A DNA stretch of 64,000 bases from a virus, in the IMG/VR virus record IMGVR_UViG_3300033149_004116, positions 36,023 to 100,022 of that record, one strand, 5' to 3'. The position numbers and the translations under genes are program-made. Below are positions 26,292-58,499 of this stretch, in pieces. Position 1 is the stretch's first letter, and every line of letters begins with the position of its first letter. The notes beneath the pieces are model-generated. The model searched no databases. It was not told the DNA's origin and worked only from the letters and a program-made list of their open reading frames with translations.

Positions 26292-26542
26292 GACTTATCG
26301 CCCCATTTGTTTTTCCTCACCAATAACATTTTCAAACAATTGGCTAAGTCTTCCATTGCAGGTCTTTGATATTCCGTCACCAATTCGTATTCCTCAAAAT
26401 ATTTTTTGAAGTCCTCGTCATTCACATCATCAGGAAAGAGATCAAGCAAAAACGTCAACGATAAAACGTCAACTTTTGATTGCATGAAGACCATCGTTAT
26501 GTCAATCAAATCTGACATTTTCACACTTACTTCTCTACTCAA
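26288..26542 (-). CDS. Hypothetical protein
   Basis: In-operon ORF. Confidence 0.45.
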   Translation of the reverse strand: MSREVSVKMSDLIDITMVFMQSKVDVLSLTFLLDLFPDDVNDEDFKKYFEEYELVTEYQRPAMEDLANCLKMLLVRKNKWGDKS

Positions 26543-27734
26543 TACGATCCCTCAAATATTCGTCAAATTGTTTAACAATAATGTTTATATCATATACTTC
26601 TCTCGCTCTTTTTACTCCTCTCTCGGACATTGCCTTCTTCTCGTCTGGATTTTCTATCAACCATTTCATTTGTTCATAAGCATGATCAACATCGGCTAAT
26701 GCTCTATCAACTCCCGCGCTTCCAGTTTCAAACGTTTCAACCTTGACGGGGAGTCCACAAGTCCAATTCCCAAGTATTTCTTTCGAAGTTGTATATGTCG
26801 TTGCAACGTTAGCACAGCCACACGAGAGAGATTCGGTTAAAGTTAGCCCCCACCCCTCCCCGCCAGTTAAGTAACAAAATATATCTATACAGTTATAGAC
26901 CTCCGCTAATGTTTCCTCAGAAACTCCATACATAAAATTTGCCATCATATCGGGCGAGGGGAATATAACATCTTTCCCTTCCTGCAAGCCAAATCTCTTG
27001 ACTATAAAAGATAAATCCCATCCCTCCTTGTCAACTTTATCCATCCATAGAAGAAGAACAGTATTTGGATAATCTTTATGAAGTTTGACGAATGATTTGA
27101 TAGTTCTGGGGATTTTCTTTCGAGTTTGGTTTCGATCCACCCGTCCAATTACAATTTTGGATGGGGGTATTCCAAGTTTCTGTCTCATTTCTCCAATAGT
27201 TTGCTCATCCAAAGGTTTAAAGATATTTGTCTTGACTCCATGAGGAATTTGATCGGTTTGTATTCCCTCCGCTTTAATCAAGTCCGCGCCGTATTTTGAA
27301 ATACACACCTTATAATCCACTCTTTTCAATATCTCTTTTATTTGATCTGTTACTGGATATCCATCGATAGGAAACCAATACAACCAAGGGACGGGAATCT
27401 CTGTTTTATATAAATAAGAGATCATCCAGAAATCAGCAAGCGTTATCAGAACATCTGGATTTTCCTTTGGAAGCCAATATTTGATTGCTCTCTCCCCGAA
27501 TCTGTCTCCATAAATATTTGGAAGAATCCTATAACCCAAGACATCCTTATGAAAGGAGGCAACCATTTCCTGACCAAAGGATTGCCATCCTATGTGAGCA
27601 ACATCATGTCCAACTTTATGAAGATATGTATCCAAATTTCTTAATGCAGTTCCAAAGCCAGATATGGTGTGTGATGATTGGTGTCCAAGAAGGGGATTCC
27701 TTACTTAGATATCACCCATCGTTAATATCTTCAT
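26535..27734 (-). CDS. GT4 glycosyltransferase in two exons (27711-27734 and 26535-27677) separated by a 33-nt BHB intron; 388 aa after splicing
   Basis: AAGGTGA SD and ATG at 27734 give MKILTMGD. Removing 27678-27710 joins it in frame to SSHTISGFGTALRNLDTYLHKVGHDV, restoring a typical GT4 N-terminus. RNQTRK and GEGWGL..E motifs downstream. Confidence 0.88.
27678..27710 (-). other. Archaeal bulge-helix-bulge micro-intron in an mRNA
   Basis: Minus strand GATG-GGTG-AT^A-TCTAAG..CTTGGA-CACC-AA^T-CATC: outer helix GATG/CATC, 4-bp central helix GGTG/CACC, 3-nt bulges ATA and AAT, inner helix TCTAAG/CTTGGA. Contains an in-frame TAA. Confidence 0.85.
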
Positions 27735-28522
27735 TTTTTCACCTTATCCCTCCTATATTGTCTTCTATTCCAATATCCCTTTTCTTTTAATTTCATATAT
27801 TTTTTCCACTTCCTCTCTCCATATATTGTAGCATCATTATATATCCAATCTAGTAGTTTTCTTGCTTCTCTAGTTGCATATTTTATTTTATAAACACCTA
27901 TTTGTTTGTGACACGTTTTCAATCTTAATCCCAACAATTTGTTTATCATCGCTGAAATCCACGTTAAAAATTCTTTAGTTCCTATAATTTCTACTATCGT
28001 CCTATTTTGAACGTCATAAACTCCACCATCCCCATCAAAAACTCCTCGAAAGAAGTGCTTAAACATATTATTTGGAACGTCAATAATTCCTTGAGTTGAT
28101 GTTTTTCTCGGATGGACTCCTAGTTTTTCTAAGTCCTTATACATTTTAACGCTACCAATAGACAAGCGATAATAGAAATCTCCTAGTGTGTTTTTTGATT
28201 GTTTTGCATATTTTATCGGATGTTCTGAATCCATAGCCTTCCTTATTTTTTCTAAAATGTCTTTGTCAACAATATTTATTTGAATTTTTCGTCCCTCAAC
28301 TAAACATCCATCTGCTACTATAAATCCCAAACAATAGTAAGTGGACTCGGAAGACTTTTTAAAGAAGTCTTCATTTATAGCATATTTTCTATTATGGTGT
28401 GTCATTAACATACTATTTGTTTTAGTCTTATATAAATGTTTCCTTATCCACGTTTCTTGTTGAGTCAAAACGTTTCGAGAAGAGTTATCTTGCGAACTAT
28501 CACCAAGGGTTAAAATCTTCAT
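27731..28522 (-). mobile_element. Two-motif LAGLIDADG homing endonuclease, free-standing, beginning with a copy of the GT exon 1
   Basis: YCLGFIVADG and FFRGVFDGDG motifs; N-terminus MKILTLGDSSQ versus GT MKILTMGDSSH. Confidence 0.9.
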
Positions 28523-28575
28523 GTATTTTCTTATAATTAAAAGGAGAACTTATATAAAAAGATATTGGTTTTTAA

Positions 28576-29319: not shown

Positions 29320-29904
29320 TTATGATATGTCTTCAATCGGAGTTTCAATATAAATTTTATAAAAGTTCTTGGGGGGAGCAAAATTGTGTTCTCTCGCCTC
29401 AGTTGCAATATGCCGAGCTATAGCGGGCATAGTTATCCTTTTATCGCTCCAATTTTCTATTCCTACTTGATCTAGAGCGTGTTGTAATGCTCGCATAATT
29501 CGTTCTTTGGGCATAGGAGGATATTGAGGTCTAACCTCCTTTCTAGGAAGTCTGGGAAGTTTTGGAAGATCGATCTTCTCTTTCGCAAATATCTGATGTT
29601 TATAATTTTTTAGAACTACTCCTTCCCTTCGATGGCGACGACACCAAGTTAACGATTTCTGAATTCGTTCATTTAATTCTTCTAATGATGCTGGTATAAA
29701 TCTATCAATAACTCTGACTATAGGTATTTTAAATTGATATGCTCTTTGATATACATACTCGTATGGTAAAAATCTTTCAGCATTTACGTCATATATGTCG
29801 AAAATTATCCAATGAATATTTGAAATTGCTGATTCTATTCTAGTTGGCGATCCGCTTCTTTTTTTAATGTGATAACTTCCACATTTAGGACATTTTATTG
29901 TCAT
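29320..29904 (-). CDS. ATP-dependent RNA ligase, C-terminal half of a split gene
   Basis: IFDIYD (motif IIIa), REGVVLK (IV) and FAKEK (V); begins with CPKC. Confidence 0.75.
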   Translation of the reverse strand: MTIKCPKCGSYHIKKRSGSPTRIESAISNIHWIIFDIYDVNAERFLPYEYVYQRAYQFKIPIVRVIDRFIPASLEELNERIQKSLTWCRRHRREGVVLKNYKHQIFAKEKIDLPKLPRLPRKEVRPQYPPMPKERIMRALQHALDQVGIENWSDKRITMPAIARHIATEAREHNFAPPKNFYKIYIETPIEDIS

Positions 29905-30464
29905 TTTTTCTTAATTCTCCATTTTCATATCTTTTTATCCATTGACAATTCATACATAATACTTGATATCCCTCTGGATAATTATTATCTTGTAACCAGC
30001 GATAAAAATGTCTTCCACCTTTTCTATTTTTTCCAAATAACTCTCTTCTATGATCTCCACCGCCTCCCTTGATATGATCTATTGAAAGAGTTCTTATATC
30101 GCTCATACCACATTGACGACAAACAGGTGTTGAGAGATGGGAATAATGAGATAAAACTTCATATTTTATTTTCTGACTCCATATCTTACTTCTTTCGTTG
30201 CTTGCCTTTATTAGTTTTATTCTGTTTTTCTCATAATACTCCTTTTGTTTTTGTCTTATTTTATCTTTATTCTCTTCTCTATATTTTTTATTATATATCC
30301 TCCTCCTCTCTCTGTTCTTGATATAATATTCATGTTTATATTTTTTTATACATTCTTTACACTCAGTTCGTCTATTCTTTTTTTCCCCTTTCTTTTCTTT
30401 CATAAAAATCTGAAACGGGTTTAATTTGATGACATATTCGACATTCGCGGAGTTCCATAATCAT
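29885..30464 (-). mobile_element. HNH homing endonuclease inserted in the RNA ligase gene; frameshift at a G4A7 run near 30378-30388
   Basis: N-part MIMELRECRICHQIKPVSDFY (from 30464) continues in the +1 frame as RTECKEC..CRQCG..LSIDHI..YQVLCMNCQ; own TATA box near 30485. Confidence 0.8.
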
Positions 30465-30502
30465 TATAGGTTCACTTCTAAAATATAAAGGTTTTGTTCA
30501 AC

Positions 30503-30838
30503 TCACCATTTATATCTACAATCTTTACATATGAAACGACCTTTCTTAAGCAACTCGCCATATAAAATGAATTTATTATCATAATTTAATTCATTCTTTA
30601 ATAATTCAATTGCTCTGGAATATTCTGGGGTTGATCTCAATCGAGCCCGAATGCTCTTATCAGCTTCTTTCATTCTCCTACTAGAGATTTGGGGGATTTC
30701 GTCCTCATCAAACCAAATTGATGTATTTTCTCCGTCGCGCTTAACAGTAAAAAGAACAACCTTTCCTAATAATTCTCTCCCCTCATTTCTCAATCTTTTA
30801 ACTGGTTCTAAATCGGGATATTTTTTCCAAATAGACAT
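30503..30838 (-). CDS. ATP-dependent RNA ligase, N-terminal half of a split gene
   Basis: KYP, TVKRDGEN (motif I KxDG), SSRR (Ia) and ILYGEL (III); ends with FICKDCRYKW. Confidence 0.78.
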   Translation of the reverse strand: MSIWKKYPDLEPVKRLRNEGRELLGKVVLFTVKRDGENTSIWFDEDEIPQISSRRMKEADKSIRARLRSTPEYSRAIELLKNELNYDNKFILYGELLKKGRFICKDCRYKW

Positions 30839-31047
30839 TACATTTTCCACCAATCATTTGGAATATATATTTTAATTCCTCGCTTTTGCATAAATTCTAG
30901 TCGAATATAAAATGCCACATTTATCAAAGCAAGGTCTATTTCTTTAATCGCAAATCCTCTCCCTCTAATTTCAGAATTAAAAAATTTTATTAATTTTTCT
31001 GTGAGGAGGGCAACATTATCTTCTTTCATTTTTTTCACACACCTCAT
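30838..31047 (-). CDS. Hypothetical protein
   Basis: In-operon small ORF. Confidence 0.4.
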   Translation of the reverse strand: MRCVKKMKEDNVALLTEKLIKFFNSEIRGRGFAIKEIDLALINVAFYIRLEFMQKRGIKIYIPNDWWKM

Positions 31048-31297
31048 TCTGTTGCTTGAACTTCGCTCTCTGTTTGATTATTTCGGCAAAAAATGTGTTG
31101 ATATAATCCATCGCCGTCTCAAGATAGTGGTTTGGAACTTCTAATGGTTCCTCCTCACGATAGAGTCCCATCTTTTTTCTCCTTTCTACGTCGGTTTTCA
31201 AGATTTTCAAATAACCTTCCCAGCTTTCCACTTTCTTTATAAGTTCTAGGAGCGCATCAAATTTAACAATCACACTCGAATTATCATAAGTTTGCAA
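31016..31297 (-). CDS. Hypothetical protein
   Basis: The open frame extends to about 31345 without an ATG. Confidence 0.45.
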   Translation of the reverse strand: MQTYDNSSVIVKFDALLELIKKVESWEGYLKILKTDVERRKKMGLYREEEPLEVPNHYLETAMDYINTFFAEIIKQRAKFKQQNEVCEKNERR

Positions 31298-31345
31298 TCC
31301 ATACTTATCTTCAAGTTCTTCAAACGTTCTTTCTTTTTTACGTAT

Positions 31346-32278
31346 TCATCTCTCCTCCTCGACGACGCCCAAGACAGCATAAAGCTTCTCTTTCCATCTC
31401 AGTAATCGATCAAGTGATTTTCTCGTCAACCAAATCCAATCCATATTGAGAATCTCAACCAGTTCGGGCATGAGTTTCTTGATGGCTTCAAGACTGCGCT
31501 CAAGTTCAATTTTCTTCTTCATGGTCTTCTCAAGGAGAGGCGTGTCACTCCAATCTATACAATCCCAGTTTCGTGCTTTCTCCCATATCGGCTTAAGCTT
31601 CTCCCTTAACGCATCTATGTCGGCGCAAATTTCGCTTATTAGCTCATCAAAAGAATCATGGCTCTTCTGCTGACAGGGCTTTTCTGCATCTGGAACAACA
31701 ATCTTAGGCTTTCCTTTCTTTACTTTCGTTACTTCAAGTTCCACGTTGTATCGCTTTGGATTCATCCTAACATACACATTCTTTTCGATCTCCTCCTCGG
31801 CGGCTCCCAATATTCTCTTTAATTCGTCTAGGTCTTTCCCAGAACAACATAGATATTTCATCCCTGCCGTTTCACAAATCTCTACCCTTTCTGAAAACCA
31901 AGTCTTGACGGCTTCGAGGCGACTTTTGGCATTATAGGCGTCTAAAACTTCTTTATCATCAGCTCTGAGCCATTTGTTGAACCCATCCCACATCTCTTCC
32001 TTTCCACGCGTCCTTTTGAAGCATTCCCCGCACATCGTCATCGATGTCTCTGGATCGATGAACCCACCACATATCGGGCATCGTATCCGCAGGTCGAGAT
32101 CGTTTAAGGGGTTGTGGCTCTCCCGCTGCTTCGATAATAGATTGGGAGAATCTCTATCAGTGGCATGTTGGGTCGCGCGCGTTTCCGTCCTTACACTCGC
32201 GAGCTTTGACGACCCTATGCCTACAGCAGTTTCGGGTGCCGATATCCTCCCTTTCTTATTCTTTTCTTTCTCTTCCAT
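31346..32278 (-). CDS. Hypothetical protein with Zn ribbon and coiled coil
   Basis: CPICGG..CGEC; visibly more GC-rich than its neighbours. Confidence 0.5.
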   Translation of the reverse strand: MEEKEKNKKGRISAPETAVGIGSSKLASVRTETRATQHATDRDSPNLLSKQRESHNPLNDLDLRIRCPICGGFIDPETSMTMCGECFKRTRGKEEMWDGFNKWLRADDKEVLDAYNAKSRLEAVKTWFSERVEICETAGMKYLCCSGKDLDELKRILGAAEEEIEKNVYVRMNPKRYNVELEVTKVKKGKPKIVVPDAEKPCQQKSHDSFDELISEICADIDALREKLKPIWEKARNWDCIDWSDTPLLEKTMKKKIELERSLEAIKKLMPELVEILNMDWIWLTRKSLDRLLRWKEKLYAVLGVVEEER

Positions 32279-35349: not shown

Positions 35350-36338
35350 TTTTGCCAAGGCATATTCTTTCTCTTTTTATAATTACAGGAATTATCACAA
35401 AATCCCCATTTTATCAAAGTATCACAACTAATAGGTTTGAGATTTCTATCTTTTATGGAATTTCTAGAATAATTTATTTGATACTGTGTTTTGCTCTCAT
35501 CATAATCTGAAAATTGACTCATAAACCAGTGTATCTTTTCATCTGTCATTTCTGAATAAATAGCATCCATCAAAAATGCCAGCCTAGCATTATGTGATGG
35601 ATCTTTTTTTAGCGCCGAAATTATACATTTTCTTATCTCCCAATTGCCTATCTCCATTTTTTTGCTAGATCTTTTTATTTTTTTATTCATCATTATTTCC
35701 TGCAAAATCTTAGTGGTATATTTTATCGGAATTGGATTTTCTTTAAAGGAATTGATATCTGGAATGTATGGTTCTCTGTCAATAGTTAAAGGTATTACTT
35801 GATTGCCAGTTTTCTGATGATATGAGAATGGCAAGCGAGCTAGAGCGTTTATATGCGTGGGAAGTTTATCAAAGTTTGGGTAAAGGGAAAAATCTCCAAG
35901 GATGTCGAAGAGTATTTTCTTGTAAAATTCTCTCGCCCCTCTCTCCTTTTCGGCTGTAAATTCTAATTCTCCTATATACGCCCACACATGATAACCACGT
36001 TTTCCGCTATAAGTAATTATAGGTTCTGCATTCATATTTTTTATCTTTCCGGCTATAATTAGTGCTTGAAACCACACATCATCCAATTCTTTTGCATCAT
36101 AAGAATACTTACTTAATTCTTTTTTGGTATCGAATTCATAAAACAATTTTTCAATACGCAAAACTGGTTGTACTGAATGGAATGCGGGCTTCCTATATAA
36201 CCAACATTCCCTAATGAATTGTTTATATCCCTCTAATGAATTATAAAATTTGTTTCTAAATTGCCCAAATTGATGATTCCCATAAGCGAGCCACCTCTCA
36301 AGAAATGTCTCGACCTTCGAATCATCTAAGTCAAACAT
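35346..36338 (-). CDS. Archaeo-eukaryotic primase with fused C-terminal Cys-cluster domain
   Basis: LFYEFD, YSGKRGYH and D..ARLP.S.H.KT; C-terminal CI..HNARL..ISC.....FC..C. Confidence 0.85.
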   Translation of the reverse strand: MFDLDDSKVETFLERWLAYGNHQFGQFRNKFYNSLEGYKQFIRECWLYRKPAFHSVQPVLRIEKLFYEFDTKKELSKYSYDAKELDDVWFQALIIAGKIKNMNAEPIITYSGKRGYHVWAYIGELEFTAEKERGAREFYKKILFDILGDFSLYPNFDKLPTHINALARLPFSYHQKTGNQVIPLTIDREPYIPDINSFKENPIPIKYTTKILQEIMMNKKIKRSSKKMEIGNWEIRKCIISALKKDPSHNARLAFLMDAIYSEMTDEKIHWFMSQFSDYDESKTQYQINYSRNSIKDRNLKPISCDTLIKWGFCDNSCNYKKRKNMPWQN

Positions 36339-49153: not shown

Positions 49154-49287
49154 AACCACAAATGTCGCGTGGGCGAACCAAGAGGGGGTATCAGGAGAAT
49201 GCTCCTCTGGCGACAAACCCCTATCACGCAAGACGATAACCCCACACCGTCTCCGCTTGGCTATTGTCCCATTTCGCGTTTGTGGTT
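49154..49287 (-). ncRNA. BHB-flanked structured RNA precursor; predicted excised product 49164-49272 (109 nt)
   Basis: Minus strand AACCACAAA-CGCG-AA^A-TGGG...CCCA-CGCG-AC^A-TTTGTGGTT is a canonical BHB. GC-rich and intergenic, with a TATA box near 49311-49320. Confidence 0.75.
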
Positions 49288-51855: not shown

Positions 51856-52145
51856 ATTTTATAATAACGAAACCTTCATATATAAGGATTTTGATTTTTC
51901 CGCCTGACCCAAAAAATCTTATCCTTTCAATTAAAAAATAATATAATACCTCGAACTCTTTAGATTTAATTTTAATATTTAATTTTAATTGATCCGTAAC
52001 ATTTAAATATGCGAATTTTTATATATTATATAGTATATGCTCGCGCGTAGGTAGTTGAAACCATAATAATCCTTCTTACTATTATTCCTATAGGAATATT
52101 TTAAATGAAGTTTTTAAATCCTCCCTAATTTCTGCTCTTATAAAA

Positions 52146-58454: not shown

Positions 58455-58499
58455 AAGAATAGAAGAAGCCACCTAATATAAAAAGATTTCGGTTATTTG

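Follow-up and report, generated by a model that had tools for sequence, protein, structure and literature searches.

In this work we analysed a locus in a stretch of 64,000 nucleotides (nt), hereafter the window, which forms the last 64 kb (positions 36,023 to 100,022) of the 100,022-bp IMG/VR virus record IMGVR_UViG_3300033149_004116, with an estimated completeness of 79%. Within 850 nt, and all on the minus strand, the locus holds the apparently intact gene of a LAGLIDADG homing endonuclease (hereafter the nuclease), a duplicated gene start and a predicted bulge–helix–bulge (BHB) micro-intron in the gene of a glycosyltransferase (GT); its relatives provide both empty sites and nuclease-free sites that bear an intron. 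This arrangement suggests that the nuclease gene entered the 5' end of the GT gene as a cassette that replaces a gene end. The published case of a short BHB intron in a coding gene that a limited literature search found is cbf5 (PMC2738675), and the locus bears on how such introns enter protein genes and persist there, whether by spreading with homing nucleases or by protecting against them.

The micro-intron in the glycosyltransferase gene

The GT gene is interrupted after eight codons. Exon 1 (27711..27734, minus strand) encodes MKILTMGD, the following 33 nt (27678..27710, minus strand) contain an in-frame TAA, and exon 2 (26535..27677, minus strand) encodes the body of a GT4-family glycosyltransferase (Pfam Glycos_transf_1, E 1e-13). 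Save for this TAA the frame is unbroken to 26535, and removal of the 33 nt joins MKILTMGD to SSHTISGFG. The comparison set consisted of 161 GT-related loci, including 13 that have neither intron nor nuclease. GT homologues are 47–73% identical to the window protein; all full-length relatives read MKIxxxxDSxHTISGFG, without the 33 nt between D8 and S9, and 13 relatives are colinear with the spliced GT. The minimum-free-energy fold (z = -2.4) gives a helix–bulge–helix–bulge–helix (hBHBh') geometry with the polarity of tRNA introns, in which all 14 of the pairs checked were confirmed. The whole motif (27673..27720, minus strand) comprises an outer helix GAUG/CAUC, a central helix GGUG/CACC, the 3-nt bulges AUA and AAU on opposite strands and an inner stem–loop, and cuts after the second bulge base would give a product colinear with the homologues. 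BHB geometry alone is weak evidence, because a lenient scan (128 kb scanned) returned 106 matches in the window; the exact placement of the motif and the relatives carry the argument. The same scan also picks up a 109-nt BHB with CGCG/CGCG at 49164-49272 of the window (minus strand).

Three metagenomic relatives carry inserts at the same D8|S9 boundary, of 30 nt in L093 (L093:2971-3000) and L101 (L101:57-86) and of 31 nt in L095 (L095:353-383), the last of which breaks the frame since it is not a multiple of three. They lie in another GT clade, are unrelated in sequence to the window intron and have no nuclease nearby. All three fold to hBHBh' (z = -3.6 to -4.4), with UCCG/CGGA replacing GGUG/CACC, so that four intron sequences share the same fold with compensatory changes; the window intron and the L093-type introns could not be aligned by MAFFT, and this comparison is therefore one of structure. 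A maximum-likelihood tree places the two intron-bearing GT lineages in different clades (100/99 support), where each is surrounded by relatives without an intron. The presence of introns in two well-separated clades among intron-less kin marks this codon boundary as a place where introns insert repeatedly. Taken at the level of sequence, the 33-nt insert is a genuine BHB intron.

Two ways of translating across an unspliced insert were considered and rejected. Translational bypass and stop-codon readthrough conflict with the relatives that lack the 11 codons, with the 31-nt length of the L095 insert, with the two stops in the L093 insert and with the lack of matching take-off and landing codons. 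A degenerate DNA pattern for HTISGFGT, searched for in viral contigs, found two known relatives only. In another relative, L092 (L092:1733 onward), the GT open reading frame (ORF) of 430 amino acids has a nucleotide identity to the window of 38–45% over its last ~100 codons vs 55–75% in other relatives, and the 3' end of this gene may have been replaced or extended.

The nuclease gene and the duplicated gene start

The nuclease gene (27731..28522, minus strand) encodes a double-motif LAGLIDADG protein of 263 amino acids with its core at residues ~48-250. It matches Pfam PF14528 (LAGLIDADG_3) with 26.6 bits vs a cut-off of 22.5; a scan of the whole record with PF14528 gave no match at the threshold of that scan. 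The two motifs read ..GFIVADG.. and ..GVFDGDGG.., and D71/G72 and D163-G166 are invariant in an alignment of 14 sequences. A profile compared with the PDB found 2dch (I-Tsp061I) as its best match (E 1e-10), and Foldseek with the AlphaFold model returned 2dch (E 3e-9) and then inteins, I-AniI and I-DmoI. The confidence of this model (pLDDT) is 80 overall, near 90 at residues ~48-250 and below 50 at residues 1-19, which are modelled as disordered. The alignment with the 48 homologues (27–46% identity) begins near residue 45, and many of these have an N-terminal helix–turn–helix (HTH), of which the window nuclease may retain a part; none has a GT-like start. The point at which the alignment begins, the HTH of many homologues and the invariant motifs suggest that the gene, which looks intact, belongs to a free-standing family, and the first 8-11 residues look, in the model, like a foreign, unstructured tail.

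Nuclease relatives are numerous in viral contigs: a scan with the single protein as query found none, and the nuclease alignment as query found at least 486, at 39% identity or less. No nuclease beside a GT of this family was present among those listed, and when 80 nuclease loci were screened automatically for a repeat of the start behind the stop codon, no candidate had fewer than 6 mismatches. Two other kinds of nuclease-bearing element were rejected. A group I or group II intron is contradicted by the lack of a ribozyme core around the nuclease ORF, where Rfam at E<=1 gave a chance snoRNA match only, and an intein by the nuclease ORF having its own stop and being out of frame with GT. A true LAGLIDADG intein does occur in a relative, the metagenomic GT P0076 (543 amino acids), at ..TDYT|C...N|T.., which is another site of GT; its nuclease domain and the window nuclease are unrelated in sequence. 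The GT family is one that attracts several kinds of mobile element.

The nuclease ORF starts with MKILTLGDSS, and GT, read from the ATG at 27734, with MKILTMGDI followed by TAA. The upstream copy of the GT 5' end (28490..28522, minus strand; 24 nt certain, at most 33 nt by profile) now provides nuclease codons 1 to 8-11. The 24-nt starts of the two genes have 20 bases in common, whereas the next-closest of all 24-mers on both strands of the window has 6 mismatches and the next-closest start, out of 434 open frames that begin with ATG and span at least 60 codons, has 8 (16/24). The sequence-only reading that preceded this work had proposed that the nuclease start duplicates the GT start, and the upstream copy is indeed the sole such copy among the 434 ORF starts; GGTG followed by ATA, which it had noted in both copies, was likewise confirmed. 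That the resemblance is meaningless is effectively refuted. Genes of this AT-rich genome often start with MKI(L), and MKIF and MKIV starts are also listed, but the gap between 20/24 and the next-best 16/24, the failure of all 2000 shuffled sequences to reach the score of the duplicate, the immediate adjacency of the two copies and a promoter context that matches GT of the relatives all argue against chance.

The extent of the duplication depends on the comparison. It had been claimed that the similarity ends at the intron point, and this stands against the window's own GT, with which it stops at nt 24; it does not stand against a GT 5'-end profile built from 13 intron-less relatives and the window's own spliced sequence. 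This profile aligns nt 1-33 of the nuclease start, 9 nt beyond the intron site and in the intron-less register, as its second-best match in the window (E 0.052). Past nt 33 no robust homology between nuclease and GT emerged: there was one gapped pairwise local match (p about 0.03), and the profile search found nothing. Nuclease codons 9 onward show no similarity to the intron (p 0.48), and a search for a duplicated 5' untranslated region gave no collinear match. The upstream copy is closest to the start of L083 (20/24) and the downstream copy to that of L091 (22/24). The divergence between the two window copies equals that between orthologous starts, which fits the import of one copy.

The regions in front of the two starts also differ. 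An archaeal-type promoter (AACCAATATC + TTTTTATATAAG; 28549..28570, minus strand) precedes the nuclease, and its TATA box ends 28 nt ahead of the nuclease ATG. All clade-B relatives have this motif, equally spaced, in front of their GT ATG, the 60 nt before the nuclease ATG are identical at 37-45 of 60 positions to the GT upstream regions of relatives, and in the 13 intron-less, nuclease-less relatives the promoter lies directly on the GT ATG. In the window, the working GT ATG is preceded by coding sequence of the nuclease, whose 3' end contains a Shine-Dalgarno (SD) sequence, AAGGTGA (27739..27745, minus strand), 4 nt before that ATG. Such motifs precede 14 of the 67 window ORFs, vs a background of 2.6%. 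The overlap of the nuclease stop (27733..27731) with the GT start (27734..27732) as ATGA (27731..27734, minus strand), described earlier, is borne out by the coordinates. The promoter motif AACCRAWATCTTTWTATA occurs in the window at 28553-28570, 58477-58494 and 51879-51896 (all minus strand), two of these copies being exact, and matches to it number 6 vs 2.0 expected. Between the copy at 58494 and the next ORF there are ~100 nt, room enough for a leader or a small RNA.

Origin of the arrangement

Mobile endonuclease ORFs (mORFs) of fungal mitochondria carry a foreign gene end, as in Allomyces atp6. Gene ends are also exchanged by the WHO homing elements of Torulaspora and Lachancea yeasts (Coughlan et al. 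2020, PMC7282813), and in the model of gene-end replacement one boundary of the displaced fragment is the cut site: the nuclease moves together with a diverged, resistant gene end, by which the resident end is displaced (PMC7282813). At the window locus two diverged copies of a gene end, one working and one displaced, flank the nuclease gene, and the 13 related loci with neither nuclease nor intron are empty sites. The likeness to WHO elements and mORFs lies in this position of a free-standing nuclease gene between a working, diverged gene end and a displaced fragment, in the existence of empty alleles in related genomes, and in a replacement end that would give resistance. We consider it highly probable that the anatomy of the GT 5' end is that of such a cassette.

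A locus of the same kind lies 4.4 kb before the window in the same genome (L163:2380-3120, minus strand; G000:C1 about 30880-31620), where the 3' end of a C5-methylase gene occurs twice, in diverged form, on the two sides of an HNH gene (L163:2459-3016). The flanking methylase copies read LGNAVSVPVITFLG.. and LGNATTVNVIEFLG.., with the duplicated end LGNAVSVPVITFLGKQ..; the methylase ends ..LGNAVSVPVITFLGKQILLSLGG.., the HNH gene begins within the last methylase codons, and the start-less fragment LGNATTVNVIEFLGYKILKCLEEN stands one base past the HNH stop. About half of the bases are alike in the two 3'-end copies, by a codon-by-codon count made by hand. Judged by its layout this is an intron-free, gene-end-replacing cassette, and the GT locus shows this arrangement in mirror image, at a 5' end.

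In the reading that we favour, a free-standing LAGLIDADG gene would have entered the 5' end of GT as a gene-end-replacing cassette. The upstream remnant (promoter, ATG, 8-11 codons and leaderless spacing) would have been reused as the nuclease start, the nuclease body following in frame, and the cassette would have supplied the SD, a new ATG and, in diverged form, the eight codons that were displaced. With this SD and ATG, GT would be translated as a coupled second cistron, and the host tRNA-splicing endonuclease and a ligase would have to excise the 33-nt intron from the replacement start for full-length GT to be made; EndA was sought in the virus record and none was found. If the cassette is like WHO elements and fungal mORFs in this respect, its nuclease would cleave where the remnant ends. 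This boundary, at nt 24-33, falls at a distance of 0-9 nt from the point of intron insertion (nt 24). Recognition of a LAGLIDADG site, which spans ~22 bp, would be abolished by a 33-nt insert anywhere within it; if the model holds, the working copy would thus be immune, whereas co-infecting relatives whose GT alleles lack both intron and nuclease would have these alleles cut and converted. The order of events, the cleavage site and the immunity given by the intron are what we infer from this anatomy.

We put the probability of the cassette reading as a whole, with its link to the intron, at about 0.5. It is a modified form of a proposal of the sequence-only reading, according to which the micro-intron interrupts the nuclease target and the pair spreads together by cutting intron-less alleles, and it resembles collaborative homing in phages. 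The anatomy is compatible with that proposal, and the proximity of the remnant end to the intron site lends it indirect support; the introns that three relatives carry without a nuclease speak against it. A narrower claim can be made tentatively, with a lower probability: that the nuclease cuts the intron-less D8|S9 boundary of viral GTs and spreads with a replacement start whose micro-intron gives immunity, which would be the first case of collaborative homing with a BHB intron.

Several observations weigh against the favoured reading. As in a collaborative homing pair, a free-standing nuclease gene adjoins an ORF-less intron; co-occurrence of the two among relatives, which such a pair would also show, was not found. 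A search of the 161 loci with tblastn and a hidden Markov model of the nuclease family found the nuclease in none (0/161), and L093, L095 and L101 have the intron without it, so that co-transfer is unobserved. The earlier proposal had named independent occurrence of nuclease and intron among relatives as the result that would speak against it; half of this is seen, in the intron that occurs alone at 3 loci. No filled allele besides that of the window is present among the 161 related loci, and no co-conversion tract or mosaic in GT was detectable with relatives at 47–73% protein identity. The extension of homology to nt 25-33 is marginal. The position of the cleavage site is drawn from the analogy with WHO elements and mORFs, and trimming of the remnant after insertion may have moved its end away from the cut. 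Resistance could stem from substitutions rather than from the intron. Intron removal is itself predicted from the fold and the relatives. Finally, the presence of the promoter motif at two other window promoters indicates a generic viral promoter type.

These points leave room for a cassette without any link to the intron. In that case the BHB intron would be an older, independent resident, the nuclease would cut elsewhere or be held off by substitutions, and the coincidence of breakpoint and intron would reflect chance or trimming. L093, L095 and L101, which carry an intron at D8|S9 without any nuclease, are what such independence would produce, and the methylase/HNH cassette works without an intron. 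Moreover, such cassettes can sit only at gene ends, so it is not very improbable that a breakpoint and a codon-8 intron lie within 9 nt of each other; over the first ~70 nt we estimate the chance of this at ~1 in 8. The remnant nevertheless ends 0-9 nt from the intron site, and loss of recognition would follow wherever in the ~22-bp site the 33-nt insert was placed. On balance we regard the absence of a link as rather unlikely, although it is the strongest of the rivals.

The other alternatives place the nuclease inside an intron. The sequence-only reading had suggested that a nuclease-encoding BHB intron was resolved into a free-standing nuclease and a 33-nt intron: the nuclease would once have lain in a large BHB intron, in frame with exon 1, and a later rearrangement would have added, behind its stop, another exon 1 together with the 5' half of a mini-BHB. 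Promoter, exon-1 copy and in-frame nuclease are the expected 5' part of such an intron, GGTG and ATA are retained in both copies, and the best structural relative, I-Tsp061I, is an archaeal intron-encoded enzyme. This origin would, however, require an extra illegitimate recombination, and the distal BHB has neither an outer nor an inner helix. The nuclease lies outside the BHB, its ORF ending at the exon-1 ATG; its homologues are free-standing, many with an N-terminal HTH; the similarity to intron-less GT starts may reach nt 33, which would put the copy in an intron-less register; and an HNH cassette of the same layout in this genome is intron-free. We therefore set the resolved intron aside as improbable. 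It is more improbable still that both 5' halves are in use today, with an 821-nt intron (27678-28498) that contains the nuclease ORF sometimes removed so that GT is made from the leaderless start. The join from the upstream copy to 27677 is in frame, because the upstream copy consists of eight whole codons, the central helix (4/4) and both bulges are retained, and some archaeal splicing endonucleases accept relaxed motifs (PMC2738675). The outer helix of this long-range BHB nevertheless has 1/4 pairs, none of the first four positions of its inner helix, which starts with G-A, forms a Watson-Crick pair, and cofolding favours a non-BHB structure. The earlier description of this splice as in frame with poor flanking helices was thus upheld pair by pair.

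Related systems and the viral setting

Collaborative homing by a free-standing endonuclease and an ORF-less group I intron is known from F-CphI and psbA of cyanophage S-PM2, from T3/T7-like phages and from mobE and I-TevIII of T4 (PMC10448857, PMC2790892). The window locus resembles these in that the nuclease gene lies beside, not inside, the short intron of a neighbouring gene, with the insertion site as proposed target and the intron as proposed source of immunity. It differs in that the intron is an archaeal BHB intron, which would be spliced by proteins and is not a ribozyme, in the fusion of the nuclease to an exon-1 duplicate, in cleavage at the intron site, which we infer here, and in the intron that relatives have without the nuclease. 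Compared with WHO elements and mORFs, the cassette is at the 5' end, theirs being at the 3' end, and its host is an archaeal virus; the displaced fragment is alive, reused as promoter and start codon of the nuclease; the replacement end carries an RNA intron; the locus is read from sequence alone; and no second filled allele was found among the 161 related loci. The LAGLIDADG-bearing BHB introns of archaeal rRNA genes (I-DmoI, I-Tsp061I, Aeropyrum; PMC2738675 for context) share the class of nuclease and the kind of intron with the window, where, unlike in those, the nuclease ORF is outside the intron and the gene is viral and protein-coding. The crenarchaeal cbf5 pre-mRNA (PMC2738675) likewise has a short BHB intron in a coding gene (16-44 nt in cbf5, 33 nt in the window) that is gained and lost among relatives; the window gene differs in being viral, in its position beside a homing nuclease, and in a site that is filled in two clades by unrelated introns.

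The ingredients are thus already known singly: LAGLIDADG nucleases, BHB introns in an archaeal coding gene, gene-end-replacing cassettes and collaborative homing. Imperfect exon duplications have also been described next to nuclease-bearing mitochondrial introns (PMC12308204). A limited literature search brought up no viral protein gene with a BHB intron that was shown to splice, the sole related mention being of an archaeal virus with putative 12-bp introns (PMC2738675), and no homing cassette paired with a BHB intron. The cassette would extend gene-end replacement to archaeal viruses and to 5' ends. If the link with the intron is real, the BHB micro-introns at D8|S9 of nuclease-free relatives would be leftovers of, or defences against, such attacks, and short archaeal mRNA introns would gain a selective reason to exist.

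The record is taken to be that of a tailed virus of an archaeon. The window products include a large terminase, a family B DNA polymerase, a protein resembling the small subunit of archaeo-eukaryotic primases and an anaerobic ribonucleotide reductase; one window protein has a haloarchaeal HVO_A0261-type domain, and the window promoters are of the archaeal TATA type. The closest cellular matches of GT are in metagenome-assembled genomes (MAGs) of DPANN archaea (29–34% identity); the top match of a scan of genome contigs, at 29%, is a DPANN MAG (Iainarchaeum), which does not identify the host. Elsewhere in the window, the gene of an RNA ligase (29320-30853, minus strand) consists of two pieces with an HNH-like ORF (29885-30403) between them. 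The N-terminal piece contains KRDGEN, and the C-terminal piece matches positions 86-159 of Pfam RNA_ligase. Each piece has a CxxC at the break, and these would be either halves of one zinc ribbon or diverged duplicates.

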